From positions 23,604 to 87,603 of the forward strand of contig JAJZCM010000003.1 in assembly GCA_021846045.1 (NCBI GenBank): 64,000 bases of DNA, read 5' to 3'. Shown in pieces: positions 32,217 to 60,708 of the stretch (its first letter is position 1; each line of letters starts with the position of its first letter). Both the position numbers and the translations under genes were made by a program. Source of the DNA: a bacterium. GTDB taxonomy: Bacteria > Elusimicrobiota > Elusimicrobia > UBA1565 > UBA9628. Below the pieces are notes generated by a model. That model was not told where the DNA came from. It saw only the letters and a program-made list of their open reading frames with translations, and ran no database searches.

Positions 32217-33348
32217 AAAAATTATCAAAATTAGCCGCTTTGTATTAATCGCGGTTTTTTTTATCCATTTGAACGCTTGGTCGCATGAACGAGCCATTCG
32301 CGTGGGAATTGTTCCGCAAGCGGATTCATTCGTTTTTATTCCAAAAGGTCATTACCAAACAGTTGATTTCTTGGGGCGCCCAAAGACCCTCATTGACGGA
32401 AAGACTTACACGGTCAAGCCGTCGGCAAAGCTCTTATCCTTGGACTTGTGGACCTTGCCGGCCAATGCGTGGTTTCGAAGTCAAGATCCCAACGCGGCTT
32501 TATGGATCGGCAATAGGCGCTATCCGGGAAATTTTCTCATCCTTTTAAATTCCAATAAGACGGTCACGGGGATTGAAATTCTTGGGATTGAGACTTATTT
32601 GTTGGGCGTTGTCGGGCATGAAATGGACGGGTCTTGGCCGCTCGAGGCTTTAAAGGCCCAGGCGGTGGTGGCCCGGACGTTCGCGTATTTTCAGCTTGAA
32701 AAATCTCACCCGCATGGTTACGATCTTGGAGACGACGCGGGATATCAAATGTACGGCGGCGTCAAAGAGACGCCGAAAAATATTATTTTGGCGGTTAAAG
32801 AAACGGAGGGCGAGGTTTTAGGATACAAAGGAAAGTTGTTGAGCGTCTACTATCATTCCTGCTGCGGGGGCCACACTGCGGATGCGGGATGGGTGTGGGG
32901 GCTTAAGCATACGCCTCGACCCTTGAGGGGAGTTTCAGATCCCTACTGTAAATTTTCCCCTTATTACCGCTGGAAGATTTTTTTTAGATCTGATGAAATC
33001 AAGGCGGCCCTCGAAAGTCGCCGTCTTTTAGGCGGAGCGCTTAATTTTTTCGGCCTTGGGTCCGAGAAATACGACTACGTAAAAAATTTCAAGGCGCAGA
33101 TTGGAACGACCCATTTGGTCGTTGGCGCGAACCGTTTTCGGTTGGCTTTGGGAGCTTCCAGCCTTAAGAGCGTGAGGATTTTTGGTATGGAAAAGGAAGG
33201 TAATGGCGTGGAATTTTCCGGAGGGGGCTCCGGACACGGGGTCGGCTTGTGCCAGTGGGGGGCGCGCGGGCAAGCGGCGCGCGGCAGAAGCTATGAAAAG
33301 ATACTGAAATTTTATTTTCCGGGCTCGGTTCTTTCTGTCGTCGAGTGA
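32200..33348 (+). CDS. SpoIID/LytB domain protein (amidase enhancer/lytic transglycosylase family)
   Basis: Conserved block [17 protein letters not shown] and the C-terminal GVGLCQWGA motif. Confidence 0.8.
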
Positions 33349-33469
33349 AGACGGATTTTTTTGATTTTTTTGACCCTTGCCTCTTGAATCTTCGTTTTAG
33401 TTCTGTTAATCTGTTGGAGTCATTGGCTGGGCAAGGGTTTCAAGTGTTTAAAGAAAGGGGAGGACTGTT

Positions 33470-33901
33470 ATGAACTATCATTTAAAGCGAATTAATCCGT
33501 ATTGGCACAATCACCCGATGATTCCCACGGGGGTCGCTGTGGGGGCCATTTGCGCAGCTATGGGTTTTGCCGCCCAGCGCCCCGCTATTGAAATTATAGG
33601 CGTGGCCATCGCGGGCTTGTCTCTCTTTGTGGCCGTTAAGCCTGTTTTTTCCCTTTTGTTTTGTCTCATCGGGCTTTTTGGGGGCGTCAGCACGTTTCTA
33701 ATCGCCCCCGGCCTCAATGCCGACAGCTTGACGGCTCCTCTTAAATTTGTCTCCATCATTCTCTTCACCGCTTTTTATGCGGCGTTGATGGATGCGATGC
33801 TCTTGGTCGTGGCGGTGATTTACAATTTTTTGGTGGGCCCGGGCGGTCTTTCGGGTCTCCATATCGAATTATCCGAAGCGGAGGCGGAGGAAGAGGCATA
33901 G
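33470..33901 (+). CDS. Small membrane protein, hypothetical
   Basis: 143 aa with 4 predicted TM helices and an acidic C-terminal tail. Confidence 0.4.
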   Translation: MNYHLKRINPYWHNHPMIPTGVAVGAICAAMGFAAQRPAIEIIGVAIAGLSLFVAVKPVFSLLFCLIGLFGGVSTFLIAPGLNADSLTAPLKFVSIILFTAFYAALMDAMLLVVAVIYNFLVGPGGLSGLHIELSEAEAEEEA

Positions 33902-34726
33902 ATGAAAATCAACGCCATTTACGCCTCGCGCGAGCCTAATCGCGCGGCTGTTTTAGTCGAAGCGTTATCGGCGAATCAATTTTCGGTTTCCATTGCGCAA
34001 AAATCCAAGGAGGTTTTGGATCAACTCTCCAAACAGAACGCCGGTCTTCTCTTGATTGGGGAAAAGTTGACGGATTTAGACGGGGTTGCGTTCGTAAAAA
34101 ATTTAAGGACGAAGGGGCCGTACAAGCAAATGCCGGTCGTTGCCGTGGTCGAACACGGGGAAGCCCAGGCGGCGGCGCCGCAGCGAAGCGCTTATGCCGC
34201 TTTTGGGAAAAAGCCCGTGGACGCGATTCGCGTTAAATTTTCCAGCGAGGCGGCGGCCAATGGCGCGGCCGCGCCCGGATCTTCCCAGGCCGTCATCCGT
34301 CTTGCATTTTTTAACGCGGGAGCGGATGAGTGCTTGTCGCTTAATTGGGACGCTGCGGAGTGCGTGGCCCGCATTAAGGCGCTTCTTCGACGCACCCAAA
34401 CAACGCCTTCCGAAGAAATCATTAAGATGGGAATAATCGAGCTTAATTTGACGAGCTATACCCTCCATATCAGCGGGAAAAAGGTCAATTTGACTTCCAA
34501 GGAACTCGATTTACTTTATGTTTTTTTAAGCTCATCTAATCGCGTTCTGAGCCGCCCCTATTTAATTGAGCGCGTTTGGGGTTATAACTATTTCGGCTCC
34601 CCTCGAACGGTGGATGTTCATGTGAGGCGCTTACGGGAAAAATTGGGTTCCGCGGCGAAATATGTGACGACTATTCCCTGCGTGGGCTACAAACTGATTC
34701 CACCAGGTTCCGAAATGCGGAGGTAG
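33902..34726 (+). CDS. OmpR-family winged-helix transcriptional regulator with a degenerate (pseudo-)receiver domain
   Basis: C-terminal trans_reg_C (LTSKELDLLYVFLSSSNRVLSRPYLIERVWGYNYFGSPRTVDVHVRRLREKLG...VGYKL). The N-terminal receiver-like fold lacks the acidic pocket: there is no DD pair and the phospho-acceptor position reads LLLIGEKLTDLDG. An Ala/Pro-rich insertion is present. Confidence 0.6.
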   Translation: MKINAIYASREPNRAAVLVEALSANQFSVSIAQKSKEVLDQLSKQNAGLLLIGEKLTDLDGVAFVKNLRTKGPYKQMPVVAVVEHGEAQAAAPQRSAYAAFGKKPVDAIRVKFSSEAAANGAAAPGSSQAVIRLAFFNAGADECLSLNWDAAECVARIKALLRRTQTTPSEEIIKMGIIELNLTSYTLHISGKKVNLTSKELDLLYVFLSSSNRVLSRPYLIERVWGYNYFGSPRTVDVHVRRLREKLGSAAKYVTTIPCVGYKLIPPGSEMRR

Positions 34727-34731
34727 CGAAC

Positions 34732-35118
34732 ATGACGAAACAAAATCATTCCAAGCTTTTGGTTATTGACGACGACGCTCATCTGCGCGAAAGTCTGGCC
34801 GAGGTTTTGGAATTGGACGGCTTTGAGTGTTCCTTGGCCGGAACGGCCAAGACGGGTCTTGAATGCGCGGCGAAGATCAACCCCGATATCGTCATCATGG
34901 ATATTCAATTGCCGGATTCTTCCGGGTTTCAGATATGCCAAGAATTGCGTAAGCGTTCTAAAACGACGATCTTGATCATGATGACGGGGCGCTTTTTGTC
35001 ATTGGACGAGAAAAAACAAGGTTTTGCTCTGGGGGCGGATGATTATCTGACAAAACCCTTTGATATCGTCGAACTTTCCGCGCGGATTCGACAAATGTTA
35101 ACTCGCCGGAAGGGATAG
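34732..35118 (+). CDS. Stand-alone response regulator receiver (CheY-like)
   Basis: LLVIDDD...DIVIMDIQLPDSSG...ILIMMTG...GADDYLTKPF carries all the canonical receiver residues. Confidence 0.85.
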   Translation: MTKQNHSKLLVIDDDAHLRESLAEVLELDGFECSLAGTAKTGLECAAKINPDIVIMDIQLPDSSGFQICQELRKRSKTTILIMMTGRFLSLDEKKQGFALGADDYLTKPFDIVELSARIRQMLTRRKG

Positions 35119-35145
35119 TTAGGGTCAAGGACCCCTAGCGGCCTC

Positions 35146-37026
35146 ATGCCATTACCCTCTCAAAGAGGCAGACTTGCCTACAAGATTCTCCTCTGGTTTT
35201 TGATCATTTCCCTGATCCCGATGGGAGTCGCGGGTCTCTACTTGATTGATATTTCCCAGGCTTCCCTCCATCAGCAAATTTTGGGAACGGAGAAATCCTT
35301 GGCCCAAAGTTTTGCCGAAACGGTTTATAAATATATCGCGACCTATCGGGATATTTTGGAAGAATCTGCGGCATTGCCCCAATTTGCTTCTGGAAATAAG
35401 TCGGAAGAGCAATTTTATCTGAAGCATCTGATGAGTCTTCATGTCGCTATTCTTGAACTTTCCGTTCTGGATTCTTCTGGGCATGAAGTCATTCGAGAAG
35501 GGCGGTTCCTCGGGCCTAACCCGCAATTGCGCAACATGGAATCCGAGGGGTTTTTTGATACGGCTTTGGCCAGAGGGGAATTTATCGGCGCTCTTAAAAG
35601 GTTTCAAGGCATTTACCCGACGGTGACGATTGCGGTTTCCATTGGATCCGCGAAATCTGGGAAAATTCCGTCCGGGATATTGGCCGCGAAAATCAGCCTC
35701 AACGGACTTTCCTCCATGCTGTCGATGGAGTTTCCGCCTTCCAGCGCAACCTCGGCCGCCGTTGCCGCTCCAGATGGATTTTTAATCGCCCATTCCGATC
35801 CGGAAAAAGTCTATAAGCCTGATGCGCGCTTAAACAGTGAAATCCTGAAAATCCTTACGACCCAGGTCGCCGATTCCGGCGGCGGGGAAATGACTCTTTC
35901 AAACGGCCAAAGCTTTTTAAGCGCTTATGCCGACGTCAACGGTTTGGATTGGATCGTCTACGTTCAGGAATCCATTCAAGCCGCTTATCACACGGCCGCT
36001 CGAATGCGCTCTCAAATTCTGCGGCTTTTGATTTGGGTCATCATCGCTATTATCGTTTTATCCTTGGCTGTTTCCAGGCACATCACGCAGCCATTGCGCG
36101 CTCTTAAGGACGCCGCGCGGAAAGTGGGGATGGGCCAATTCGAGGATTTTCCAGAAGTGTTGACGACCAACGATGAAATAGGGGACTTGGCTCAGGCGTT
36201 TTTGTCCATGAGCGAGTCCTTAAAAGAGAAGACTGGCGAACTCGTCGACACCAAACAGGAGCTTGAGCGCTTGAACCGGACCCTTGAAAAACGGGTCGAA
36301 GCGCGCACGCGGGAGCTTAAAGCGGCCCAAGAAGAGCTCATTAAAAAAGAGCGTTTAGCCGCGATCGGGCAAATGGCTTCCGTGGTCGGACATGAGATCC
36401 GAAATCCGCTGGCCGTCATTAATAATTCCATCTACTTCATCAAAACAAAGTTGGCTTCCGTCTTGTCTCAAGACCCGAAAGTTTCCAAACATGTAAAAAT
36501 TATCGAGTCCGAGATTCAGCAAGCGAACGGGATTATCAACGAAATATTGACCTATTCAAGACAGCGCGAGCTTCAGCCTGAACCGGTTAGGCTCAATGAT
36601 TGGCTGGAAGAACTATTGTCGGTTTATCCGTTTCCGCCGCATATTACGCTTCAGAAAATTTTTGTTCCGTCGAATCCTCCGGTTGAGATTGATTTAACTG
36701 AAATGCAGCAGGCGCTTAGAAATCTAATTGGAAACGCTATTGAGGTGATGCCGGAAAAGGGAATTTTGGGTGTGAAGACCTTTTTGTCCCAAGCCAATAT
36801 GGCGGCGATTGAAATTTCAGATACCGGCCCCGGCATTCCGCAGGAAACATTGGAAAAAATATTTGCTCCGTTTTTTACCACCAAAGCTCGCGGGACGGGC
36901 TTGGGGCTTGCGGTCGTCAAAAAAGTAATTGATCGCCATGGAGGGAAAGTTGAGGTGGCAAGCATCGTCGGTCGAGGCACTGTTTTTCGCCTTCATATTC
37001 CCATTTCTCAAAAGGTTGAGGCATGA
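35146..37026 (+). CDS. Sensor histidine kinase (periplasmic Cache-like sensor, HAMP, HisKA, HATPase_c)
   Basis: Two TM helices flank a roughly 270 aa periplasmic domain. HAMP region, H-box AAIGQMASVVGHEIRNPL, and N, G1 and G2 boxes in the C-terminus. Confidence 0.85.
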   Translation: MPLPSQRGRLAYKILLWFLIISLIPMGVAGLYLIDISQASLHQQILGTEKSLAQSFAETVYKYIATYRDILEESAALPQFASGNKSEEQFYLKHLMSLHVAILELSVLDSSGHEVIREGRFLGPNPQLRNMESEGFFDTALARGEFIGALKRFQGIYPTVTIAVSIGSAKSGKIPSGILAAKISLNGLSSMLSMEFPPSSATSAAVAAPDGFLIAHSDPEKVYKPDARLNSEILKILTTQVADSGGGEMTLSNGQSFLSAYADVNGLDWIVYVQESIQAAYHTAARMRSQILRLLIWVIIAIIVLSLAVSRHITQPLRALKDAARKVGMGQFEDFPEVLTTNDEIGDLAQAFLSMSESLKEKTGELVDTKQELERLNRTLEKRVEARTRELKAAQEELIKKERLAAIGQMASVVGHEIRNPLAVINNSIYFIKTKLASVLSQDPKVSKHVKIIESEIQQANGIINEILTYSRQRELQPEPVRLNDWLEELLSVYPFPPHITLQKIFVPSNPPVEIDLTEMQQALRNLIGNAIEVMPEKGILGVKTFLSQANMAAIEISDTGPGIPQETLEKIFAPFFTTKARGTGLGLAVVKKVIDRHGGKVEVASIVGRGTVFRLHIPISQKVEA

Positions 37027-38165
37027 CGGAATCAAAAGTTCGCATTTTGATCGTCGATGACGACCCGCATATTCGCGAGTCTTTGTTTGACGTTCTTGAA
37101 GATGCCGGCTACGAGGTTTTTAAGGCATCCGGAGAAAAAGAGGCTTTGTCCGAGGTCCGAACGCATTCCTTTGACGTGATCCTGATGGATTATAACTTGC
37201 CGAACTCAACCGGAATCCAGGTCATCAAGAAAATCAGAAAAATCGATTTGAAAAGCCAGATATTGATGCTGACGGCGGATCGGACTCAAGAAACCGCGGT
37301 CATGGCCATTCAGGAATCCGTGGCGGATTTTTTGGTCAAGCCGGTCGACGTCGATCACCTCAAACACGCGATTTCAAACTCTCTGGAAAAATTGCGCCTG
37401 ATGCGGGAAAACGAGCGGATGTCTCTTGAATTGAAAAAAACCAACGAGAACTTGGAACATTTAGACCGGATGAAATCCAAGTTCCTTTCGATGTCTTCGC
37501 ATGATTTGTCGAACGCCTTGATGGCCCTTCAGGCCAGCTTCGAACTTCTTTCTCAAACAATCAATCCCTCCGAAGAACAGAAGAAAAGAATGACCGCGAT
37601 TTCTTCGAGCATTAGTCAGTTGACCCGCTTGACTGCCGATCTGGTCGATTGGGCTTCCATTGAAAACGGAAAATTCAGGATTGAGCGGGAAATGTGCAGG
37701 CCGGAGATCCTTTTGCAGGAAATTCTTCCGGGCTCTCAAGCGCGGGCGCAGGCGCGGGGGATTAAGTTCACGGAAAAAATAGAAAAGTCCTTGCCCGACA
37801 TCTACGCCGATAAAAGACGCATTTCCCAGGTTCTCAATAATTTGCTTGAAAATGCCATTCGCTATACTTCGAAGGGCGGGGAAATTTCAGTTTATGCGAT
37901 GCGGGCCTTAAATGAAAACTCAAAACCCGCCATTCGATTCGGAGTGAAGGACTCCGGAGATGGAATTTTGCCGACCGAACTCAATAAAATTTTTCAGAGC
38001 TTCTATCAAGGCCCGGATGCTTCGAAGGGTGGACGTCTCGGCTTGGGATTGGCCACCTCGAAAGAAATCATCGAAGCCCATGACGGGAAAATGGGCGTTG
38101 AAAGCGAGGGCATTGGCCACGGCGCGACCTTCTTTTTTACGATTCCAACCTCGAAAAATTCATGA
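37023..38165 (+). CDS. Hybrid response regulator receiver fused to histidine kinase (REC-HisKA-HATPase_c)
   Basis: Receiver ILIVDDD...DVILMDYNLPNSTG, then H-box MKSKFLSMSSHDLSNAL and ATPase G-boxes. The stop lies at the edge of the 66-bp repeat array. Confidence 0.8.
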   Translation: MTESKVRILIVDDDPHIRESLFDVLEDAGYEVFKASGEKEALSEVRTHSFDVILMDYNLPNSTGIQVIKKIRKIDLKSQILMLTADRTQETAVMAIQESVADFLVKPVDVDHLKHAISNSLEKLRLMRENERMSLELKKTNENLEHLDRMKSKFLSMSSHDLSNALMALQASFELLSQTINPSEEQKKRMTAISSSISQLTRLTADLVDWASIENGKFRIEREMCRPEILLQEILPGSQARAQARGIKFTEKIEKSLPDIYADKRRISQVLNNLLENAIRYTSKGGEISVYAMRALNENSKPAIRFGVKDSGDGILPTELNKIFQSFYQGPDASKGGRLGLGLATSKEIIEAHDGKMGVESEGIGHGATFFFTIPTSKNS

Positions 38166-38575
38166 CCGGCTGCGTTCCTTGCTCGCGAAGCGAGAGCGTG
38201 CCGAAACATCTTGAGAAAAGGCGTTATGATTCGGCCTGCGTTCCTTGCTCGCGAAGCGAGAGCGTGCCGAAACATCTTGAGAAAAGGCGTTATGATTCGG
38301 CCTGCGTTCCTTGCTCGCGGAGCGAGAGCGTGCCGAAACATCTTGAGAAAAGGCGTTATGATTCGGCCTGCGTTCCTTGCTCGCGAAGCGAGAGCGTGCC
38401 GAAACATCTTGAGAAAAGGCGTTATGATTCGGCCTGCGTTCCTTGCTCGCGGAGCGAGAGCGTGCCGAAACATCTTGAGAAAAGGCGTTATGATTCGGCC
38501 TGCGTTCCTTGCTCGCGGAGCGAGAGCGTGCCGAAACATCTTGAGAAAAGGCGTTATGATTCGGCCCGCCGAATA
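38158..38575 (+). repeat. Tandem array of about 6.3 copies of a 66-bp hairpin-containing unit (family 2)
   Basis: Unit ggcctgcgttccttgctcgcgaagcgagagcgtgccgaaacatcttgagaaaaggcgttatgattc is repeated at period 66 with at most 1 mismatch per unit. Each unit contains the stem-loop CTCGC-GAA-GCGAG. It is not CRISPR-like because there are no unique spacers. Confidence 0.9.
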
Positions 38576-40621
38576 GGATGGTTTGTCCTCCCTTTTTTCC
38601 TTGCTTCCTGCGCCACGGTCCAGGTCCCCATGTCGGTTACCTTTCCTCCGGCGGTTGATTTGTCTCCGTATCGGCGTTTTGCGTTCGGCGATATGAATGG
38701 AAACTCTGGGCGTCGTTTTCAGGACGCCTTGGCAACGGATTTGGCGCGTTCAAAAAAATTTAATTTCATCAATCGGGACCGGCTGAATGTGTTGGTCGCG
38801 GAATATGATTTGACGCAAACTCAAAATCCGACAAGCGCCAAGACCGGCCAAATCGCGATTGAAATTCATGATGCGGCGTTTATTTCTGGAACGATCAATA
38901 AAAATTACTATGAATTTGTGAGGGAGTCTCCAGATACCTGCCAGCGGAATAATCGCGCCCATCCGTGCCCTTTAAGAACGCGCGTGGGCCGGATTCGCAT
39001 TGGCGGACATTTGGATGTAATGGATGCGGCAACCGGACGATTGATCCATTCACAGACGATAGCCAAGGTGTGCCAAGCCCAAAGTCAAGCTAAAAATGCC
39101 TTTCCTGAAGCCATCAACCGAGCGCAGCTGGCTGAAAATTGCGTCAATTCCGCCGCCTATGATCTAGCGGCGCTTTTCTTGCCCTCCAGAAAAATGTTTT
39201 ATCCGGATTTTAAAAAAGTAGGAGATATCCCGGCTGTTGCCCAAGGAATCAAGGACGTGGAGGCCGGCAAAATAGGAGAAGCGGCCAAGGATTTTAGCGC
39301 GGCCCTTAAAGACCCGAAGGCGACGAGCCGGAATTTTAGTAAAAAATCCTTGTCAGAAATCTATTGGGACGGCGCGCTGGCCCAAGAATATTCCTGGCAG
39401 TTCGGCCCGGCCCTGGATTCCTTGAAAAAATCCTACGCGCTCAATCCCCTCGCGGAAACGCGAAAAGAGGAGTCGCAGCTTCTCGGCCTTGAATCCGCGC
39501 GGAGAAGGCTTTTGGGCGTTACTCCGCTCATGCTGGCGGTTGAGGGTGGAGCTTTCAACCAGGTTAAGGCGCTTCTTGAAAAAGGCGCGGACCCCAACGC
39601 TCAGGACGTTTCAGGCAACACCGCTCTAATGGGGGCGGCGCAAAAGCGGAATTTGCCCATGGTTCAAATTCTTCTTCGCTATGGGGCTTGGCCCAGCATC
39701 AGAAACAATCAGGGACTAAGCGCTCAAGACATGTCCCGGGATCAAAAAATTTCCAATTTGTTGAGCGAGAATTTTTCAAAACCATCCGCGCCGCGGCAAG
39801 AGGGGGCTTTGCCTTCTCCCAAGGCCGTGATTCATTCCGATGTGGATCAGGTTCCCTACCATTTTCCCGAAGACCCGTTTAAAATCGCCTTGGTCATCGG
39901 CATCGAGCATTATGAGAACAATCTCCCCTCGGCGGATTTCGCCGATCATGATGCCGAAGTCATGCGTGAACATTTAATGGCTTTAGGTTACGCTCCGCGC
40001 CACATTCATTGGCTCAAAGATCAGCAAGCGACTCGCGCCGCCTTGGTCAAGAATCTGGAAGGCTGGCTCCCACAAGTCGTTTCTTCCTCAGCGACCGTTT
40101 TTGTCTATTATTCCGGTCATGGGGCGGCGGACCCGGAAACTCATACAACCTATTTGGTTCCCGCAGATGGGGATTCCGGTTATCTTCAGGAAACGGCTTA
40201 TCCTCTCTCAAGGCTTTATTTGACTCTTGGAAAATTGCCCGCCAAACAAGTGATTGTCGCTTTGGACTCGTGTTTTTCCGGTAGGGGCGCGCGGTCTTTA
40301 TCTCCTGCGGGAGTGCGGCCTTTAGTCACTTTATCTCCGGTGGTTCCTTTAGTGGAAGGGGTGGTCGCGATGACGGCGGCTTCCGGGACTCAGATTGCGG
40401 AAGTTCTCAATTCCGAGGGACATGGCCTATTTACCTATTATTTTTTGAAAGGTCTTAACGGCCCGGCAAAAAACAAGTCGAATAAAATATCGGTGCAGTC
40501 GTTATACCGGTATTTGCGTCCGCAAGTCGAGGATGCGGCGGGAATGAAAAACCGCACGCAAACGCCCGAACTTTTACCCGGAAGCGTTGCCCATTCAAAT
40601 GCCATCGTTTTAGTTCCATGA
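38521..40621 (+). CDS. Lipoprotein with ankyrin repeats and C-terminal caspase-like (peptidase C14) domain; likely GTG start inside the last repeat unit
   Basis: Lipobox LPFFLASC after a basic n-region. Ankyrin repeats (TPLMLAVEGGAFNQVKALLEKGADPNAQDVSGNTALMGAA...). Caspase fold with catalytic dyad context YYSGHGA and ALDSCFSGRG. The ORF track version 38162..40621 reads through the repeat array. Confidence 0.7.
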
Positions 40622-41772
40622 ATGAAGATAGTCCTGATTTAAATATTCCGGTCGATTTCGATTTGGAATCCTATCGCTTTTCCTATCCTGAGGAATTGTT
40701 GGCCGCGAGTCCTCTTGATAAGAGAGATGATTGCCGCCTGTTGGTTTTAGACCGCTCTTTAGGAACGGTCTTTCATGAACAATTTCACTCGCTTCCCAAG
40801 CATCTCAAGCCCGGGGATTGCTTGGTTCTCAATGAGACTCGGGTCTTTTCCTGCCGCTTGGTCGGCAAGAAAAAGAGCGGCGGAAAGGCGGAAATTCTTC
40901 TAACCCGAGAAATCAGTCCCGGATACTGGGCGGCATTGGGTTCGGGTTTTAAGAAGGGGCATGAATTAATTTTTACGGGCAACCTGACGGGGCAAATTGA
41001 AGGGTTAAACGAGGATGGCGAGTATTTGATAAGGTTTGACCGCGAGGATATCCAGTCTTACATGGAGCGTAATGGTTTGCCGCCTCTTCCTCCCTACATT
41101 CTCAAAAAAAGAAAATTTTCGCCTGCGTTCCTTGCTCGCGAAGCGAGAGCGTGCGAGGGCATCTCGGGGAAAGATTTTAGGCACGCGCCCGTTGCGGAAT
41201 CATCCGAAAAAAACGATCAAGAATCTTATCAAACCGTTTATGCGCGGAATTTGGGCTCGATTGCCGCTCCCACCGCCGGGCTTCATTTTACGCCGGAGCT
41301 CCTTCGGGAAATCGAGCGCCAAGGAGTTTTCATTTGCCGGCTGACCCTTCATGTCGGACGCGGAACCTTTAAACCGATTGTTTCAAGAGACATTCGCCGG
41401 CATAAAATGCTTCCGGAATATTATCACGTCAATTTGGAAAATTCGCGGAAACTAAAAGAGGCTCAAGAACGCGGCGGAAAAATAATTGCTGTTGGCACGA
41501 CAGTCGTGAGAACCCTTGAGACCTTGGCCAAAAATCAAAACAGAGACGGTCCCATTTCTGAAATGTCCGGCTGGACCGATCTTTTTGTATATCCGGGGTA
41601 TCCGCTTAGGATGGCGTCGGCCTTGGTGACCAATTTTCATTTGCCGGAGTCGACCCCTCTTATTCTCGCCGCTGCCTTTGCCGGGCGAGAAAAATTGCTT
41701 AAGATTTACCAGGAGGCTTTTCTTTTGAAATACCGTCTCTTTTCTTACGGCGACGCAATGCTGATTTTGTAG
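40618..41772 (+). CDS. queA: S-adenosylmethionine:tRNA ribosyltransferase-isomerase QueA, carrying an in-frame insertion of a family-2 repeat unit
   Basis: QueA blocks LLVLDR, PLPPYI, YQTVYA...GSIAAPTAGLHFT and a C-terminal TNFHLPESTPLIL motif. About 30 extra residues (KKRKFSPAFLAREARACEGISGKDFRHAPVAESSEK) sit between PLPPYI and YQTVYA, encoded by the repeat at 41112-41175. Confidence 0.85.
   Translation: MNEDSPDLNIPVDFDLESYRFSYPEELLAASPLDKRDDCRLLVLDRSLGTVFHEQFHSLPKHLKPGDCLVLNETRVFSCRLVGKKKSGGKAEILLTREISPGYWAALGSGFKKGHELIFTGNLTGQIEGLNEDGEYLIRFDREDIQSYMERNGLPPLPPYILKKRKFSPAFLAREARACEGISGKDFRHAPVAESSEKNDQESYQTVYARNLGSIAAPTAGLHFTPELLREIERQGVFICRLTLHVGRGTFKPIVSRDIRRHKMLPEYYHVNLENSRKLKEAQERGGKIIAVGTTVVRTLETLAKNQNRDGPISEMSGWTDLFVYPGYPLRMASALVTNFHLPESTPLILAAAFAGREKLLKIYQEAFLLKYRLFSYGDAMLIL
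41112..41175 (+). repeat. Solo copy of the family-2 66-bp hairpin repeat inside queA
   Basis: ttcgcctgcgttccttgctcgcgaagcgagagcgtgcgagggcatctcggggaaag matches the tandem-array unit (38158-38575) over about 45 nt, including the CTCGC-GAA-GCGAG hairpin. Confidence 0.8.
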
Positions 41773-41783
41773 GATTTGTATCA

Positions 41784-42926
41784 ATGGGATTTAAAATTAT
41801 CGGACGGGAAGGTCGCGCGCGAGCCGGGGTTTTAAAAACCGCCCACGGGGAAGTCGAGACTCCCGTTTACATGCCGGTCGCGACCCAAGCCTCGGTCAAG
41901 GCTTTATCACAAGAAGATTTGGATTCCCTGGGGGTCAAGGCTATTTTGTCCAACAGCTACCACCTTTATCTAAGACCGGGAACCTCGGTGATAAAACAAG
42001 CGGGCGGTCTTCATCGCTTCATGAAATATGAGGGGATGATTTTGACTGATTCCGGAGGTTTTCAAGTCCTTAGCCAAGCGGATTTAAGAACCATCGATGA
42101 CTTCGGCGTCTCTTTTAAGTCGCATATCGACGGCAGCGCCCACCGGCTGACGCCGGAAAAAGTTATCGCCATACAATCGGAGTTGGGCTCCGATTGTTGG
42201 ACGGCGCTGGATGTTTGCGCGCCCTATCCTTCGGATGAGGCGCAGACTAAATTAGCCCTTGAACGCACGATGAGGTGGCTCGATCTTTCTGAAAAGACGT
42301 TTCTTCAGAAGAAAGCCGAGGGCTCTGAATCTCTATTTTTCCCGATCCTGCAAGGGGGATTTTTTGCGCCTCTGCGCTTACAAGCGGCCGAACACATGAG
42401 TAAAATCCAGGCCGATGGAATTTCTCTTGGGGGCTTTTCCGTAGGGGAACCGAAGGCATTGACTTGGGAGATTCTGGGAAAGACAACCGAAGTCCTTCCT
42501 GAACAAAAACCGCGTTATCTCATGGGAGTGGGAACTCCAGAAGACTTATGGGATGCGGTTTCTTTAGGCATCGATATGATGGATTGTGTTTGGCCCACAA
42601 GGGTCGCCAGGAACGGTCAGGTCATGACCCGCGTTGGGCGCTACAATATCTCAAACAGTTTTTGCCGGACTAATTTTGAGCCATTGGAGTCTTCGTGCTC
42701 CTGTTTTGTCTGCCGAAGATATTCGAAGGCTTATTTGTCCCATTTGCACCGGAGCCGCGAGCTTTCGGCCCATCGTTTGATTTCCTACCATAACATCCAC
42801 TTGATGCTGGTTTTGGCCCGCGAAATCCGGCAAAGCATCTTGGATGGAAACTTCGCCGAAAAGAGACGTGAGTTCTTTTCCCGGATCAAAAAAGATTCAA
42901 AAGACGTTCTGGCCCTTGTCTCGTAA
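41784..42926 (+). CDS. tgt: Queuine tRNA-ribosyltransferase
   Basis: N-terminal GRARAGVLKTAHGEVETPVYMPV, LGGFSVGEP and a C-terminal zinc site CxCxxC...H (CSCFVCRRYSKAYLSHL). Confidence 0.9.
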   Translation: MGFKIIGREGRARAGVLKTAHGEVETPVYMPVATQASVKALSQEDLDSLGVKAILSNSYHLYLRPGTSVIKQAGGLHRFMKYEGMILTDSGGFQVLSQADLRTIDDFGVSFKSHIDGSAHRLTPEKVIAIQSELGSDCWTALDVCAPYPSDEAQTKLALERTMRWLDLSEKTFLQKKAEGSESLFFPILQGGFFAPLRLQAAEHMSKIQADGISLGGFSVGEPKALTWEILGKTTEVLPEQKPRYLMGVGTPEDLWDAVSLGIDMMDCVWPTRVARNGQVMTRVGRYNISNSFCRTNFEPLESSCSCFVCRRYSKAYLSHLHRSRELSAHRLISYHNIHLMLVLAREIRQSILDGNFAEKRREFFSRIKKDSKDVLALVS

Positions 42927-42936
42927 AAGAGTTCTT

Positions 42937-45003
42937 TTATTCTTTTAGGCTGTTTTGTGTCTGTTGGGGAACGGAAAGCTGCGAATAATCGGGTTCGGTC
43001 CCCATGTTCCAGAGAGCTTCGAGATATTCCACTAGGGCTCCGAGATAGGGGTCTTTCAAATAGACCGTATTCTCGAAATTATGGCGGTTTCCGTTGAAGC
43101 TCATGTTGGTTGAGCCCGTGGCGACGATTCCGCCGGATTTTCCGTCTCCGATCACAAGCTTATTGTGGAAAAGCCCGGTTTCTCCGGCGCCGGCTATGAC
43201 GCGCACTTGAGCTCCGGCGTCTTTTACTTTTTTCATGTCGGCGATGGAAGCCGGGTTGTGGGATTGGTGGATGTCGGATAATATACGGATAGACAAGCCA
43301 TTGTTGAGTTTTGAAACGATGGTTGAGACCAAATCAGGCCAAGGATAGAAGCCGAACATTCCGATCAAGGCGTCTTGTTTGGAGGCATTGATGATTTTTG
43401 CCCACGCTTCTCCGGTTCCTCCATTAGGCGAGAAGGAAGCGATGGGAAGAGAAACCCCGTTAAAATTTTGGCCCATGATTGGGTCTGTGGGAATCGGGCT
43501 GGTGATAGACGGTTCCTCGGGGTCTAAGTCGTCGGAATAAGGGCGCGCGACGCTTTTCGCCCAATTGAAGAATGTCTGATAGAGGGCGATAATTTTTTTG
43601 TCATCAATAAAAACCACGTTTTCCCAATTATTTTCCTGCGAGTGGGTTGAATAATTGTAGGAGCCGGTCTCGAGTATTTGGGAACTCCCAAAAAAATGAG
43701 GGACATTCCAAATCCGGAACTTAGCGTGTTGAATTCCGATGCTTCCCAAGCCTTTGAGTGCGTAAAGTTTGAGATTTGGGTTTCCTGCATTGGACTCATC
43801 CACCAATTTTTGAAGCTGAGGACTGCGGGTTATGCTTCTCTGACGCATTTTTTCAGGGAAAAGGTTGGAATAATCCGCGATGATTTCAAATTTCTTTCCC
43901 TGTTTGAGCCCTTGGAGAATGGAGGCGACGTCCTCATCCAAGGTTTCTTCATAGAGCATGATTTGAGTCGAGTTGGAGGCGTTATTTCCAGCGGCGAGTA
44001 TTGCGGGAATATCGTCTCCGGTCCCATTGGGAACATTGGGGAAAAGAGTTCTCTTCACGTTTTGATTTCCAATCTTGATGAGATCATTATGCGTGGGAAT
44101 AAAAATATGCGGGAATTGAAATTGTAAATTTTCGGAGCGAAGATTGAACTCCCGCGGCGTCATGACTTTTTGAGTTTCCGCTGATTTAAGCCACAGCGGG
44201 CCTTCTCTTGGCGCATCAACGTTGAAGGCGGGGTCGCTTAATAACTTTTCATCATTGGAGCCTTGTTGAGGATTTTTGCCGCTGGCCCAATAAGGTTCGA
44301 GAGTCTTTGAGATGTGTTGAGCTTGAATCGAGGCAAGGGTTTGGGAAAGTCTGTTGATTTCTTTTTCTTGCTGAGAATCGCGGATATAGATTTTGGTCAA
44401 GGGCGTTAAGATTTGATCAAGTCCTTTGGCCTTTTCAAAGGATTCTTGAGAGAGCGAGGAATGTCCCGCATCCGAGGTCAAACCCTCTGCGTATCTTTGG
44501 ATAGATTCTAAAACCTGCGCGGCCGATTTTTTTCTGCCTTTTTCCAGAAGCGCGGTAATTTGAGAGAGAAGAGCTTTTTGGCGCTGCGGATTCTTGGAGG
44601 ATAGGAGGGCGTTCAGCCGTCCCTTGATTTGAGCCTTGGCTTTTGGGTTGAGGGCGTTAAATAAAGGCGCCAAAAGCCGCTGCCCTTCGGGGGTGGAGGC
44701 GGTTTTTAAAACCGAAACCCACTCGGAGGTTTTTGCCTCTTCATTTAAATTAAAAGACGGATTTGCGGACCATTGCGAGAAGCTTTGAAGGGATGCGCTT
44801 AACCCGGCATTGGCGTTCATCGTAAAGAGCGGTTGGGTGAGAAAACCGGTTTCCGCGGGCATCGCGGAATTGAGCCCTGCGAAGGCTTGCGCCGATGACA
44901 AGAAGAGAATAAACGCAAAAACGGCGCGCGGGGTTGTTTTTAATGGAGTCAGGGGTTGCTCCCTTGGGAGGGCTGGCTTGGAGCTTTGTTGTCGCCATCC
45001 CAA
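42937..45003 (-). CDS. Secreted phospholipase D-superfamily protein (two HKD motifs; PLD/Nuc-like phosphodiesterase)
   Basis: Signal-like N-terminus AVFAFILFLSSAQAFA. HKD motifs HAKFRIW... and HNKLVIGDG...GSTN. The annotated start overlaps the upstream convergent-orientation neighbour by 55 nt, so the real start is probably an alternative codon downstream. Confidence 0.65.
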   Translation of the reverse strand: MGWRQQSSKPALPREQPLTPLKTTPRAVFAFILFLSSAQAFAGLNSAMPAETGFLTQPLFTMNANAGLSASLQSFSQWSANPSFNLNEEAKTSEWVSVLKTASTPEGQRLLAPLFNALNPKAKAQIKGRLNALLSSKNPQRQKALLSQITALLEKGRKKSAAQVLESIQRYAEGLTSDAGHSSLSQESFEKAKGLDQILTPLTKIYIRDSQQEKEINRLSQTLASIQAQHISKTLEPYWASGKNPQQGSNDEKLLSDPAFNVDAPREGPLWLKSAETQKVMTPREFNLRSENLQFQFPHIFIPTHNDLIKIGNQNVKRTLFPNVPNGTGDDIPAILAAGNNASNSTQIMLYEETLDEDVASILQGLKQGKKFEIIADYSNLFPEKMRQRSITRSPQLQKLVDESNAGNPNLKLYALKGLGSIGIQHAKFRIWNVPHFFGSSQILETGSYNYSTHSQENNWENVVFIDDKKIIALYQTFFNWAKSVARPYSDDLDPEEPSITSPIPTDPIMGQNFNGVSLPIASFSPNGGTGEAWAKIINASKQDALIGMFGFYPWPDLVSTIVSKLNNGLSIRILSDIHQSHNPASIADMKKVKDAGAQVRVIAGAGETGLFHNKLVIGDGKSGGIVATGSTNMSFNGNRHNFENTVYLKDPYLGALVEYLEALWNMGTEPDYSQLSVPQQTQNSLKE

Positions 45004-55318: not shown

Positions 55319-56629
55319 ATGAGACTCACCATTCACCGCGGCGCTAAAGAAATTGGCGGGTCCTGCGTTGAGATCACGGCGGGCCGGACGCGGGTCATCG
55401 TGGACCTCGGGATGCCTTTGGTCTCGCCTTGGAACAAGAAGGAAAAACTCGAAACGCGCGGTTTTGCGAAAAAATCATCACAGGAACTGCTCGATATGGC
55501 CGTACTCCCGAAGGTCGCCGGACTTTATGCGATGGATGGGGGCGGGGCTGCGGTCGACGCCGTGCTTCTCTCTCATCCCCACCAGGATCATTACGGGCTT
55601 CTTGGACATATCCGGCCCGGAATTCCGGTGTATCTCAGTGACGGTTGTCGCCGCATCATCGAGGCCTCGGATATTTTTCTTCCCATCAAGGCGAATATCC
55701 GCAACCCCGTCGTGATTGATGACCGCAAGCCGGTGAAGATCGGCGACATCACGGTCACGCCCTACCTCATGGACCATTCCGGCTACGGCGCGCTGGCTTT
55801 CCTCATAGAAGGAGACGGCAAGAAGGTCTTTTATTCCGGCGATTTTCGCGCTCATGGACGTAAGGCAGCGCTCTTTCCGAAGTTTGTGCGCACAGCTCCG
55901 CAGGGCGTGGACTGCCTTCTCATGGAGGGAACGACCCTCGGGCGCGAGGGCCGCGCGCCGGAAACGGAGACCGATATCGAGGAAAAAATCGCCGGAATCG
56001 CCCGCCGATATAAAGGGATCAAGCTCGTCTACGCCTCGGGACAAAATATCGACCGCCTCGTTTCCTTCTACAAAGCAGCCAAGAGTATCGGTGGGGTCTT
56101 CGTCGTGGACCTCTACACAGCCTTCGTTCTCGACTCCTTGGGGAACAAGAATATCCCTCATCCCTGCGCGAGTTGCAGAAACTTGAGGGTACTCTATACC
56201 AAGAATTATGTGATAAAACTGGCGCAGGCGGGGCGCGAGGACGCCGTCAAGCGCTATCGCGGCTCGGAGATCACGCTGCGGGAGATCGCGAAGGCGGGGG
56301 AAAAGGCTTTCCTGATGTATCGGGAGTCCATCCGGCCCAAGATCGAAAAAATCGGGGACTTAAAGGACGCGGCCATGATCTATTCGATGTACGAAGGCTA
56401 TAAGCGGGAGGAGTCGTTCAAGAAGGTTCAGTCGTTTCTGGATGAGAACAAAATCATGCTTGAAACCGCGCACACGAGCGGCCACGCCTCTTTCGACGAC
56501 CTCAAACGCTTGGCCGCGGCGCTCAAGCCCAATGTCCTGACCCCGATTCATACCTTCAACCCCGAGCGCTATGCCGAGCTCTGGCCCAAGGTTCGTTCAC
56601 TCAACGACGGCGAGACCTTTGAGCCGTGA
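55319..56629 (+). CDS. MBL-fold metallo-hydrolase, beta-CASP-like nuclease/RNase family
   Basis: HPHQDHYG (HxHxDH) motif 2, later DHSGY and EGTTLGRE blocks, and C-terminal HTSGHAS. 436 aa. Confidence 0.65.
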   Translation: MRLTIHRGAKEIGGSCVEITAGRTRVIVDLGMPLVSPWNKKEKLETRGFAKKSSQELLDMAVLPKVAGLYAMDGGGAAVDAVLLSHPHQDHYGLLGHIRPGIPVYLSDGCRRIIEASDIFLPIKANIRNPVVIDDRKPVKIGDITVTPYLMDHSGYGALAFLIEGDGKKVFYSGDFRAHGRKAALFPKFVRTAPQGVDCLLMEGTTLGREGRAPETETDIEEKIAGIARRYKGIKLVYASGQNIDRLVSFYKAAKSIGGVFVVDLYTAFVLDSLGNKNIPHPCASCRNLRVLYTKNYVIKLAQAGREDAVKRYRGSEITLREIAKAGEKAFLMYRESIRPKIEKIGDLKDAAMIYSMYEGYKREESFKKVQSFLDENKIMLETAHTSGHASFDDLKRLAAALKPNVLTPIHTFNPERYAELWPKVRSLNDGETFEP

Positions 56630-57870: not shown

Positions 57871-58019
57871 TGGTAGCAATTTGCTGATCGATCCGAAGAA
57901 TGTCCATTTGTGCGCCCTTGCCACCTCCAATTATTACAAGGACTGGTATTTGTCACCAGTGACGGACACAATAAATAAGGACACTGTTCGATAAATTTCT
58001 GCGTATCCATCACGGGAAT

Positions 58020-58451: not shown

Positions 58452-58495
58452 GTCGGGGACGGGAGGTCGTGTGCCACGCTGGGACACCCGCGCTC

Positions 58496-60559
58496 CTATC
58501 GAATTCTGACTAAAGCAATTTTCCCCACCGGTTTCGGTTCCACCTGAGGGACCTGGTCGGCGTTGTTGTCGAGACTGGCGGCGGCCGGAACCTTTCGCTT
58601 GAGATATCGCGACAGGGATCCCACCGTCACATGGCCAGCCCTCTTTGCTCCTCCATCTATTCCCTTCAGAAAGTAGTAGGTGAAAAGCCCGTGACCAGTC
58701 TTCTCATCCGGCCCCGCCTCCTGGTCGGCTTTTGCGGCAGAAAAGGCGATCAGCTTCCCAGTCCGTGGAAAGCTCCCTTCCTTAACAACCGTGACAAGGG
58801 CGCGCACGCCCTTCCCTATGACGGAGCGTCCGGGCCTCCCGGAAAAGCAGGCGTCTAAAGCGATAAGGACCCGTTTCGCATGAAGACGGTTGAGATCATT
58901 GTAAAAGCTGGTTTCACGGTAGGCGGTGTCTCTTAGGTCGTTGGGATTTCCTCCGGATGGAACGAGGTAGGTGTGACCATGAGCCCCCGGAGCTCCATGA
59001 CCCGAGAAATAGACCCAGACGGTTGAGTCCGGCTTTGCGTTCCGCCCGAGCCAGCGTATCCCTCCCTTGATTCCACCCCGTGTGGCCGTGCCGTTTGTGA
59101 GACGTTTGATATGGTCGGGAGGAACCCCTAGGGCAATCAGTGTGCGATAGACTGCACGGGAGTCCCGATCGGCGAACTGGACGGACGGAAGACCCCCGGG
59201 GTATTTTTCCACGCCGATCACGAGGGCAAACATGTGGCGGTTCCTGGGGGCCTTGAAGGTCGGACGATCAACGGAGGAATGAAAGACGCGAGCCTTGGGC
59301 TTAGCCTTGCGTTTGCCAATCTTCCTCACCTGCCGCTCAAGATTGGACAGCGCCTCGATCACCTGTGGCGAGGCCTGAGAAGACTGCGCGGGTTGCGCCT
59401 GTTGCTCCGCGATGGCGTTTTTTATGAGGTTGGCAACTTTATAATGGTTTTCATCTTCAGCCCATGTAAGAGCGGTCCCGCCTTTTACATCTACGACATT
59501 GAGATCGGCCCCGCTGGCAATCAAGAGCTTGACGATATTGGCGTGACCATATGTCGCGGCCAATATAAGAGCGGTAGCACCGAATTGGTTATTTACGGCA
59601 TTGACATTGGCACCGGCGGCAATCAAGAGCTTGGCGATATCTGTATGGCCTTTTACAGCGGCATTCATGAGAGCGGTAGTACTGCCGTAGCCGTATTGGT
59701 TATTTGTGGCATTGACATTGGCACCGGCGGCAATCAAGAGCTTGGCGATATCGGCATGATCAGCAACCCCGGCACCTATAAGAGCGGTATTGCCAGATTC
59801 GTCCGCGGCATTGACATTGGCGCCGCTGGCGATCAAGAGCTTGGCGACATTGGCGTGACCATAGTACGCGGCATTCATGAGAGCGGTTCCGCCGTTTTTG
59901 GCTGTGGCATTGACATCCGCCCCATCAGCAATCAAGAGCTTGGCGATATCCGTATGGCCTTTTACCGCGGCATTCATGAGAGCGGTTATGCCGTCTTTGT
60001 CTGCGGCATTGACGTCGGCCCTGGCCTTGAGAAGAAGGGAGATTATGTTCGCATTACCATTCTTAGCCGCATTCATCAGCGCGGTGTTCCCAGCATTGCC
60101 CCTAGCATTGACATCGGCCCCAGCCTTGAGAAGAGTGGTGACCATGTCCGCATTACCATTCTCAGCTGCATTCATCAGCGCGGTGAACCCAATATCGTCC
60201 CTAGCATTGATGTCAGCCCCGGCCTTGATAAGAAGTGTGACCACGTTTGCATGACCAGTTGCAGCCGCAGCCATCAGCGCGGTGTTGTCATAAGGCTCGT
60301 CCACGGCATTGATGGAAGCCCCGGCCTTGAGAAGAGCAGCGACCACGTTCGCTTGACCATTCGAAGCCGCATATAGCAACGCGGTGAACCCAATATCATC
60401 CTTGGCATTGACGTCGGCCCCGGCTTTGATGGCTTTCTCAACACCACCAAGGTCTCCGTTTTGTGCCGCGGAAAAAAGAGCTGCAGACGCGCATCCCAAA
60501 ATGTTCAGGGCGCCCGCCAAAAACAAGATGATAAAGAACATTGAAAGACCTCTATTCAT
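58496..60559 (-). CDS. Secreted ankyrin-repeat protein with C-terminal caspase-like (peptidase C14) domain; paralogue of 38521..40621
   Basis: Signal peptide MNRGLSMFFIILFLAGALNILGCASA. At least 9 ankyrin repeats (GADVNAKDDIGFTALLYAA...). Caspase fold with YFSGHGA and ALDACFSGRPG dyad contexts. The ORF track start 60616 includes the conserved leader. Confidence 0.75.
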   Translation of the reverse strand: MNRGLSMFFIILFLAGALNILGCASAALFSAAQNGDLGGVEKAIKAGADVNAKDDIGFTALLYAASNGQANVVAALLKAGASINAVDEPYDNTALMAAAATGHANVVTLLIKAGADINARDDIGFTALMNAAENGNADMVTTLLKAGADVNARGNAGNTALMNAAKNGNANIISLLLKARADVNAADKDGITALMNAAVKGHTDIAKLLIADGADVNATAKNGGTALMNAAYYGHANVAKLLIASGANVNAADESGNTALIGAGVADHADIAKLLIAAGANVNATNNQYGYGSTTALMNAAVKGHTDIAKLLIAAGANVNAVNNQFGATALILAATYGHANIVKLLIASGADLNVVDVKGGTALTWAEDENHYKVANLIKNAIAEQQAQPAQSSQASPQVIEALSNLERQVRKIGKRKAKPKARVFHSSVDRPTFKAPRNRHMFALVIGVEKYPGGLPSVQFADRDSRAVYRTLIALGVPPDHIKRLTNGTATRGGIKGGIRWLGRNAKPDSTVWVYFSGHGAPGAHGHTYLVPSGGNPNDLRDTAYRETSFYNDLNRLHAKRVLIALDACFSGRPGRSVIGKGVRALVTVVKEGSFPRTGKLIAFSAAKADQEAGPDEKTGHGLFTYYFLKGIDGGAKRAGHVTVGSLSRYLKRKVPAAASLDNNADQVPQVEPKPVGKIALVRIR

Positions 60560-60616
60560 GGTTTCCTTTTGAAACATACTCTGGAGCCAACCATTTCCTC
60601 GCTTAAGCTCGGTCAT
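60557..60616 (-). promoter_or_regulatory. Conserved 5' leader (copy B), about 95% identical to 9244-9303
   Basis: ATGACCGAGCTTAAGCGAGGAAATGGTTGGCTCCAGAGTATGTTTCAAAAGGAAACC precedes the signal-peptide ATG. There are 3 mismatches to copy A. Confidence 0.5.
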
Positions 60617-60708
60617 GGTTTCCCTCCGTACGAACTCCCGCGTTCAGCCTGCCGCGATCTCGACACATGACCCGCCAATTTCTTTAGCACCGCGATGGAT
60701 GGTGATGT

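Follow-up and report, generated by a model that had tools for sequence, protein, structure and literature searches.

What does a caspase-type protein with an export signal do directly behind a set of two-component signalling genes? The question is raised by gene A, one of two related genes (A and B) in a 64,000-nucleotide stretch of contig JAJZCM010000003.1 from a member of the Elusimicrobiota, here called the window. Both genes encode ankyrin (Ank) repeats followed by a C-terminal caspase-like domain. To our knowledge, caspase homologues of bacteria have so far been treated almost exclusively as enzymes of stress or cell death in the cytoplasm. We consider it somewhat better than an even call that A and B are lipid-anchored extracytoplasmic caspase-type proteases and that A serves the kinase system beside it. 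The parts of this reading differ in strength. Judging from the sequences, both proteins are probably exported and catalytically active. A tie between the function of A and the kinases is about evenly poised, and an action of A on the sensor itself is unlikely. The protease family is already known, and Ank-caspase lipoproteins are numerous in databases under generic names. New here are the three-part fusion in A, its constant position in a kinase operon and the insight that this caspase branch is exported.

Caspase-like domains and export signals

The initial annotation described each protein as a run of ankyrin repeats followed by a C-terminal caspase-fold domain with an intact His/Cys dyad. 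Pfam Peptidase_C14 (PF00656) matched A with an E value of 7e-16 (59 bits) and B with 1e-13 (51.9 bits), the cut-off being 21.4. Pfam also found ankyrin repeats in both proteins, although A has merely two or three of them (Ank 9e-14 and Ank_2 3e-11 over residues 326-389; two clear repeats and one capping repeat). The dyad contexts, YSGHGA and DSCFSGR in A and FSGHGA and DACFSGR in B, were intact, and the catalytic codons could be located (Table 1). The catalytic His and Cys were invariant among ten family members and also among 62 diverse relatives. A single-sequence search of the Protein Data Bank (PDB) aligned the YSGHG and DSCFSG motifs of A with those of GSU0716 (3BIJ). A ten-member family profile reached the metacaspases Yca1 (2.6e-7), MCA2, AtMC4 and AtMC9, with the SGHG and DSC motifs aligned.

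The structural models pointed in the same direction. An AlphaFold2 model of the Ank and caspase part of A, based on 62 sequences, had a mean predicted local distance difference test (pLDDT) score of 85, and the helical pairs of the ankyrin repeats scored above 90. Foldseek retrieved 3BIJ as the best match to this model (3e-11), then MALT1 (7e-11), metacaspases and caspases (E 1e-9 to 3e-11). Pfam found no CHAT domain (PF12770) in A or B at E<=0.01, and a few distant relatives carry CHAT as a secondary precomputed match. Profile and structure searches thus agreed on a caspase fold of clan CD, family C14, with a positionally conserved dyad, and the protease call made from the sequence alone was borne out. 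A and B would be cysteine endopeptidases of MEROPS family C14, in a large subfamily typical of anaerobic environmental bacteria.

The known proteins found in these searches resemble A and B to different extents. GSU0716 of Geobacter sulfurreducens was the best match in both the structure search (TM-score 0.64 on the target) and the single-sequence PDB search. It is a single-domain structural-genomics protein of unassigned function with 18% identity, and is uninformative on biology. The paracaspase MALT1, second in the structure search, joins a caspase-fold protease to protein-interaction domains and has a signalling role. It is Arg-specific. MALT1 is, however, eukaryotic and cytosolic, carries death and Ig domains and is activated by scaffold oligomerisation, and its homology to A is confined to the protease domain. 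Metacaspases and orthocaspases (MEROPS C14B; MCA2, Yca1) share with A and B the caspase-hemoglobinase fold, the SGHG and DSC(x)SG dyad and equivalents of the S1 residues. They are cytoplasmic, whereas A and B have lipoprotein export signals and N-terminal ankyrin repeats. The similarity is remote (E 1e-7 by profile), and the comparison covered the fold, the dyad and the S1 residues.

The S1 equivalents bear on the specificity to be expected. The Asp of 'xDA', a Ser two residues before the catalytic His and an Asp two residues before the catalytic Cys were also conserved, and both Asp residues were invariant in the 62 sequences. The Asp of 'HDA' in A aligned with the Asp of 'ND(A/V)' in MCA2 and Yca1. 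In Trypanosoma brucei MCA2, Asp95, Ser156 and Asp211 have been proposed to form the S1 pocket (PMC4357240). Since the three conserved positions match these residues, an acidic S1 pocket of the metacaspase type is predicted by alignment, and with it a basic P1 specificity, that is, cleavage after Arg or Lys and not after Asp. The only part of the domain modelled with low confidence (pLDDT <50) was the stretch of 20 residues past the catalytic Cys, a loop with Arg residues that hardly vary (R156 and R164, numbered as in the domain alignment). Caspase-type enzymes are cut for activation in the loop that follows the catalytic Cys. This stretch is likely the activation loop, in which A and B may cleave themselves.

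Both proteins had also been credited with a lipoprotein-type export signal, and lipoboxes were indeed recognised by eye in both proteins and in the orthologues of A. The signals of the A orthologues include MTFRRIVCFFIPLLLISC and MILRRWGRLLLPLAFISC, and these proteins start with MTFRRIVCFFIPLLLIS-C, MILRRWGRLLLPLAFIS-C and similar sequences. The start of B proposed earlier, at 60559 (MNRGLS...ILGC), yields a good lipobox signal. By visual inspection, B (read from M20) and all A orthologues appear to have canonical lipoprotein signals. Because of a tandem array, the lipobox of A is found 150 residues after the ATG in the window, or 28 residues after a GTG at 38528. Mature A has four further Cys residues, all invariant and all in its N-terminal module, in addition to the catalytic Cys, which is the only Cys of mature B. 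The four Cys, which likely form two disulfides, fit an oxidising compartment.

These signals bear on two other explanations. The initial annotation suggested, as one of two options, host- or prey-directed effectors. The protease would then work inside another cell, with the ankyrin repeats imitating proteins of eukaryotes. Some Elusimicrobia are protist symbionts, and the ankyrin repeats did score against models of Legionella Dot/Icm Ank effectors, far under the cut-offs. However, the signals are of the Sec/lipoprotein type and not of the effector type, and no type III, type IV or type VI secretion genes lie near either copy. Gene A is embedded among housekeeping genes of conserved order, and relatives are plentiful in metagenome-assembled genomes (MAGs) of Nitrospirae and Deltaproteobacteria as well as in metagenomes from groundwater, sediment and soil. 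These relatives belong to free-living anaerobes, bear Sec/lipoprotein signals and lack secretion-system genes as neighbours. The effector idea found no support, and we regard it as very improbable.

The second explanation is an intracellular conflict or programmed-cell-death component, comparable to EACC1-associated or CRISPR/gasdermin-linked caspase-like proteases. Among NCBIfam models, the closest is indeed 'caspase, EACC1-associated type' (NF047832), with 92.7 and 72.1 bits for the two proteins. Both scores fall under the curated 140-bit cut-off, and the EACC1 partner is not present. Generic PADLOC models for 'caspase' and 'Ankyrin' matched as well, and B has an IetA-like AAA ATPase (2e-19) nearby, in a stretch whose composition is unusual. 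In contrast, the export signals on both proteins would place the protease outside the cytoplasm, and no NTPase or sensor partner is fused or adjacent to A. Because the PADLOC matches were generic and at the domain level only, and both proteins carry export signals, the assignment to a defence system was rejected. We find such a role extremely improbable.

Reading frame and three-part make-up of gene A

The start of A had been placed at 38521. This position is out of A's frame, and translation from it met 30 stops. The frame opens instead at the ATG at 38162, whose final two bases form, with the next base, the TGA stop of the preceding kinase gene. From there the gene runs, in order, through an in-frame array of 66-bp units, a lipoprotein signal, a CsgG-like domain, a TPR region, the ankyrin repeats and the caspase-like domain. 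The array had been taken for a spacer between the kinases and A, and was found to lie in frame within the signal peptide of A. It was missing from the orthologous loci, where the A proteins have 687 residues. The difference to the 819 residues of A is 132, or 6 x 22, which puts the array in frame after codon 2 and before the Arg-Arg of the signal peptide. Tandem Repeats Finder reported a period of 66, 6.0 copies and 99% matches. Two units folded as RNA at -55 kcal/mol (z -3.2), and Rfam held no family for the repeat array.

Translation from 38162 would place 134 charged, Cys-rich residues ahead of the hydrophobic core. A GTG at 38528 is, from its sequence context, the sole other plausible start of A besides the ATG. 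If used, this GTG would provide a usable 28-residue signal, with the signal peptide MPKHLEKRRYDSARRIGWFVLPFFLASC. The cluster formed with A at 90% identity contained versions with 1, 2, 3, 4 and 6 units (a 575-residue fragment and proteins of 731, 753, 775 and 819 residues). This variation may be true population variation or the result of short-read assembly collapse.

The core of the array hairpin (about 38 nt) also occurred in frame within queA, downstream of A, at about 41110-41180 with the core match at 41125-41155. There it is part of a variable-loop insertion of 20-22 residues (FSPAFLAREARACEGISGKDFRH) that is missing in three orthologues, and it is read in another frame than the copies in gene A. 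The unit is stop-free in four of six frames. Given this and the other frame used in queA, we rejected the open frame through the array as proof of coding selection. The queA insertion recalls what we take to be a comparable case, the palindromic elements tolerated inside genes such as the Rickettsia RPE.

Residues 28-327 of A belong to neither the ankyrin repeats nor the caspase domain. The earlier account of A named its Ank and C14 parts correctly and omitted this N-terminal module of 300 residues, which combines a CsgG-like domain with TPR-like helices. Pfam CsgG scored 21.3 bits in A. A profile of the module searched against 1.84 billion cluster representatives gave 380 matches at E<=1e-3. 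Of the 150 listed, almost all are proteins of about 300-390 residues that stand alone, and only A's own cluster was long. In ten stand-alone relatives examined with Pfam, CsgG was found in nine (down to 9e-17), LpoB in six and TPR families in all ten. The AlphaFold2 model of the module was confident for residues 20-190 only (pLDDT about 80 there), and the TPR-like stretch was helical with low confidence. Foldseek placed CsgG on top (1.6e-7), together with HpaA, LptE, PelC and FlgT, which are outer-membrane-associated lipoprotein folds.

As the module occurs mostly alone and is CsgG- and TPR-like, A can be described as a CsgG-like/TPR lipoprotein fused to an Ank-caspase cassette. The fusion would have taken place in one Elusimicrobia-like lineage and joined an outer-membrane lipoprotein to the cassette. 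The N-domain of A matches the CsgG/LpoB/LptE/PelC/HpaA group in fold and predicted lipid anchor, with low TM-scores (0.3-0.5). The CsgG channel itself has transmembrane hairpins, a nonameric ring and a curli operon, whereas A is a fold-level match and csg/curli genes are absent.

Orthologues of A were few and closely related. The protein database contained eight clusters at 61-100% identity to A, and the orthologues P0002-P0008 were 61-83% identical, with 686-707 residues where full length. Two very specific peptide patterns of A matched five species-representative genomes, three of them titled Elusimicrobia bacterium MAGs. The back-translated patterns of the N-terminal module were too specific for a genome scan, and recovered these five close orthologues only. 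By sequence, the three-part fusion of the A type is confined to a narrow clade.

Gene A behind the kinase genes, and the wider family

Nine orthologous loci were compared, and in each of them A was preceded by the identical five-gene set wherever the contig reaches. Identity to A was 77-82% in seven loci and 60-61% in two. In L003 and L010, both of which lack the array, the sequence showed the A start overlapping the kinase stop (ATGA), and gene coordinates gave a 4-bp overlap of the kinase and A in L001, L002 and L006. In L004 and L005 a gap of 10-13 bp replaced the overlap. The initial annotation regarded A as the terminal gene of the cluster. Instead, queA overlaps the stop of A by 4 bp, and tgt comes next on the same strand. 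In L010, queA and tgt were not found downstream of A, where a family-9 glycosyltransferase gene (heptosyltransferase-like, 12108-13160) lies, and the overlap with the kinase was kept. This persistence despite changed downstream genes is the strongest argument for grouping A with the kinases and not with queA. The suggested co-regulation of A with the phosphorelay genes thus gains weight from the nine-locus synteny, the ATGA overlaps and the case of L010, and by strand, lack of a gap and conserved adjacency A would count as a member of the two-component operon. Promoter and terminator scans over 33300-43000 gave results at or below chance.

The genes of the shared loci have diverged unequally, with identities of 77-82% for A and 94-97% for the dCache kinase and the CheY-like receiver. 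In L001, L003-L007 and L009-L011, A and queA were 75-82% identical, as against 91-97% for the dCache kinase, the CheY-like receiver and the regulator. In the receiver alignment, the OmpR-like regulator has SR in place of the acidic pair DD, and Gly at the position of the phospho-acceptor Asp (LLLIGEKL). With such a pseudo-receiver, the pathway would lack an ordinary phosphorylatable DNA-binding transcriptional output. The regulator also has an Ala-rich insertion of about 45 residues ahead of its last helix.

The initial annotation considered exported ankyrin-protease fusions uncommon in bacteria. This view was not supported, and the family proved to be large. A caspase-domain profile matched at least 4135 proteins at E<=1e-10 among 8000 candidates scored, which is a lower bound on family size. 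The best 120 matches scored 432-451 bits, with roughly 42-48% identity to A. Among the 117 best new relatives, Ank was detected in 63 (54%) with a profile of B's repeats, a hydrophobic core with lipobox was present in 67 (57%), and 23 (20%) had a hydrophobic N-terminus only. Their source names are 'caspase family protein' or 'ankyrin repeat domain-containing protein', and the sources are MAGs of Nitrospirae, Nitrospinae, Deltaproteobacteria/Thermodesulfobacteriota, Smithellaceae and Elusimicrobiota. Relatives were abundant in groundwater, sediment and soil metagenomes. Database entries of the 'caspase family' from Elusimicrobiota, Nitrospirota and Desulfobacterota MAGs have 40-60% identity to A and B in the caspase domain and the same order of lipobox, Ank, linker (S-D-V-D) and caspase, in about 430-480 residues. 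Compared with them, A has the additional module of 300 residues and the kinase operon, and B (706 residues) has an unusually long Ank array. In other members of the family the ankyrin repeats are replaced by Sel1, PDZ, PEGA or DUF2846.

We surveyed the neighbours of this family in 80 metagenome loci fetched with the caspase profile (L017-L096) and two earlier loci. In 69 loci, 339 open reading frames (ORFs) were no more than 6 kb away from a caspase gene; the counts cover 292 of them, with Pfam families counted per batch. The most common neighbour was DUF4384 (8 + 11, or 19 of the 292 ORFs), usually a protein of about 270 residues with a signal peptide, encoded directly downstream. Such a gene follows the typical family members, and neither A nor B has one. 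CsgG made up 3 of the 144 first-batch neighbours and did not rank among the top 25 families of the second batch. A hidden Markov model of the N-terminal module of A had no match in 559 ORFs of 84 other loci except in L016, which had been fetched for its own N-module gene. Therefore, the exact module is not a general neighbour of the family, and only the broader CsgG family appears. Two-component genes were not constant neighbours of the homologues, as had been proposed for checking; kinases accompanied the family only in A's lineage.

These results give room to our main alternative, in which A and B are extracytoplasmic or surface proteases of general use, serving nutrition or the upkeep of the envelope. 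They would be gingipain-like and Arg/Lys-specific, the operon position of A would be a historical accident, and variable modules (Ank, Sel1, TPR, PDZ, PEGA) would broaden the range of targets. The size of the family, its varied N-terminal modules and its several copies per locus (99 caspase ORFs in 84 loci) would fit such a protease, as would the kinase genes being unenriched among its neighbours. The source taxa are mostly largely anaerobic groups, in which an exposed catalytic thiol would survive, and gingipains are themselves Arg/Lys-specific clan-CD proteases of an anaerobe. However, the ATGA coupling to the kinase endures when the downstream genes change, and a lipid anchor with a CsgG/LpoB-like tether suggests a fixed periplasmic place rather than a free digestive enzyme. 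Nor were transporter or peptide-uptake genes adjacent. We see a real, though distinctly minor, chance that the housekeeping explanation is correct.

Several points weigh against the reading of A as a protease serving the kinases. All orthologous loci belong to one narrow clade, and the conserved gene order could reflect inheritance instead of function. The stop of A is overlapped by queA in the same manner, and because no link to queuosine is expected, overlap alone is weak evidence. Two stand-alone N-module genes that were looked up adjoin neither caspase nor kinase genes. HATPase_c accounted for 2 of the 144 first-batch neighbours and fell outside the top 25 families in the second, so kinases are not enriched around the family, and its recurrent partner DUF4384 is absent near A and B. 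The caspase subfamily is biochemically uncharacterised, and the S1 assignment is an alignment to an enzyme whose pocket was itself merely proposed. In this particular genome, the in-frame array may impair the export or translation of A.

Taking these points into account, we favour the following model for A as an extracytoplasmic protease of the kinase system. Its fold, dyad, export signals, origin by fusion, operon linkage and the size of its family come out of the sequence comparisons; activity, Arg/Lys specificity, tethering to the outer membrane and any effect on the signalling pathway are inferred. Gene A would be translationally coupled behind the dCache sensor kinase and the receiver-kinase, and this coupling suggests that A is made together with that signalling system. 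The protein would reside in the periplasm, tethered through its CsgG/LpoB-like domain, and act as an accessory or effector protease. The ankyrin repeats, in A together with the TPR region, would be the protein-binding part that selects substrates or partners, and the caspase domain would cut after Arg or Lys once activated by self-cleavage. Its target may be an envelope protein, possibly the sensor or its partner. An extended version makes A a proteolytic input/output device, whose TPR/Ank arm grasps and cleaves the periplasmic dCache sensor or a partner, and in which the array of one to six copies is a population-level export dial. We consider this version improbable; if true, it would amount to a caspase-type switch in bacterial envelope signalling.

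Two-component sensors are modulated by lipoproteins of the outer membrane or by proteases of the periplasm in several established systems, including QseG-QseE, RcsF, NlpE-CpxA and Prc, which cleaves the VgrS sensor. By analogy, A may resemble them in having a lipoprotein gene within a sensor-kinase operon, with no sequence relationship. Our results point to a large caspase branch that is exported, lipid-anchored and often ankyrin-bearing, commonly with a DUF4384 partner, and its members are unstudied. Gene A offers a testable handle on this branch, being a fusion to an outer-membrane-type lipoprotein that is fixed and coupled behind a sensor kinase. If the link between A and the kinases is functional, A would represent a novel type of accessory protease in two-component signalling; if it is not, A and B are two more envelope proteases of a family abundant in anaerobes. 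Literature searches combining ankyrin with orthocaspase or Peptidase_C14, and caspase with CsgG, lipoprotein or periplasm, found nothing relevant, and the literature searched mentions DUF4384 solely as a domain that co-occurs. Ankyrin is never mentioned in a survey of caspase homologues in prokaryotes from 2012 (PMC3501461).

Table 1. Genes A and B, their parts and their neighbours, in window positions
Feature	Position	Strand	Remarks
Five upstream genes conserved with A	33470..38165	+	Pfam; synteny in nine loci
Small membrane protein	33470-33901	+	
OmpR-like regulator, pseudo-receiver	33902-34726	+	
CheY-like receiver	34732-35118	+	
dCache-HAMP histidine kinase	35146-37026	+	
REC-HisKA-HATPase kinase	37023-38165	+	
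Gene A, ancestral reading frame	38162..40621	+	One open ORF, 819 residues; 687 without the array
Tandem array, six 66-bp hairpin units	38170..38566	+	In frame, n-region of A signal peptide; encodes (CVPCSRSESVPKHLEKRRYDSA)x6
Alternative GTG start of A	38528..38530	+	Inside last repeat unit, in frame; preceded by GGAG and a 7-nt spacer; read from sequence
Signal-peptide core and lipobox of A	38567..38611	+	RRIGWFVLPFFLAS-C; predicted lipidated Cys 38609-38611, first mature residue
CsgG/LpoB/LptE-like lipoprotein domain of A	38666..39178	+	Four invariant Cys, two likely disulfides
TPR-like helical region of A, ~2 repeats	39221..39508	+	TPR_2, TPR_12 and TPR_8 at the equivalent place in stand-alone relatives
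Ankyrin repeats of A, 2-3	39503..39772	+	Residues 326-415
Caspase-like (Peptidase_C14) domain of A	39827..40618	+	His 40118-40120, Cys 40271-40273; disordered loop right after Cys
queA	40618-41772	+	Start overlaps A stop by 4 bp
tgt	41784-42926	+	After queA, same orientation
Gene B	58496..60616	-	706 residues from first ATG; likely start M20 at 60559
Lipoprotein signal of B	60491-60559	-	MNRGLSMFFIILFLAGALNILG-C
Ankyrin array of B, about 9-11 repeats	59417-60481	-	Followed by a linker
Caspase-like domain of B	58499-59278	-	His 58997-58999, Cys 58847-58849

Gene B and a family cluster in Nitrospirae

The context of the family in a Nitrospirae MAG (L013, 1-15308) is of interest for its envelope genes. 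The order there is FlgO-like, CsgG, PDZ-S41-caspase fusion, Ank-caspase, DUF4384, Ank-caspase, caspase and GNA1162-like/TPR/beta-helix; in the fusion, a Prc/CtpB-like PDZ-S41 protease is joined to the same caspase subfamily. The cluster may be an unrecognised envelope system. That the family adjoins periplasmic and outer-membrane lipoproteins and a Prc/CtpB-type protease fits an envelope role. This context suggests that the CsgG-like fusion in A goes beyond chance, with three CsgG cases too few for enrichment.

The same locus could be read in favour of a transpeptidase or sortase-like enzyme, or of a non-catalytic scaffold, with Ank and TPR holding the cargo. Clan CD includes enzymes, such as GPI8 and PorU, that join proteins to anchors at the cell surface; the clan-CD fold is confirmed, and the L013 neighbourhood has an SLH-domain protein beside its outer-membrane lipoproteins (CsgG, FlgO-like, GNA1162-like). 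Against this, the matches of A and B are to C14 proteins (metacaspase, paracaspase, GSU0716) and not to C13 or C25, and neither a cargo-sorting signal nor anchor-synthesis genes were seen. An anchoring or scaffold function thus seems quite improbable to us.

Gene B had been named a paralogue of A. The two proteins are 39% identical over 360 residues (E 1e-61), from the last repeat through the linker and across the caspase domain, and a six-frame scan of the window with the caspase profile found A and B as the sole copies. The term holds in the broad sense that both are members of one large family, but the caspase domain of B is nearer to proteins of other lineages (up to 60% identity) than to A (about 40%). 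An exact-sequence look-up of B returned no record, and the homology search found no relative above 60% identity. The ankyrin repeats of B were matched by Ank_2 at 1e-74 in nine stretches (Pfam), with a 99-nt periodicity in the DNA that indicates recent internal repeat expansion. Neighbouring ankyrin units were up to 83% identical at the DNA level.

B is an ordinary long-ankyrin member of the family in a variable region. The variable-looking region covers 57142-63647, with a GC content of 0.568 at 58-60 kb compared with about 0.50 elsewhere. Near B, the C-terminal fragment of an MBL/RMMBL hydrolase (58020-58451) duplicates part of 55319-56629. The region also includes two ORFs without a Pfam match, one of which (60709-61467) is weakly Cas4-like, and the AAA ATPase at 61468-62802 that resembles the defence protein IetA in PADLOC.

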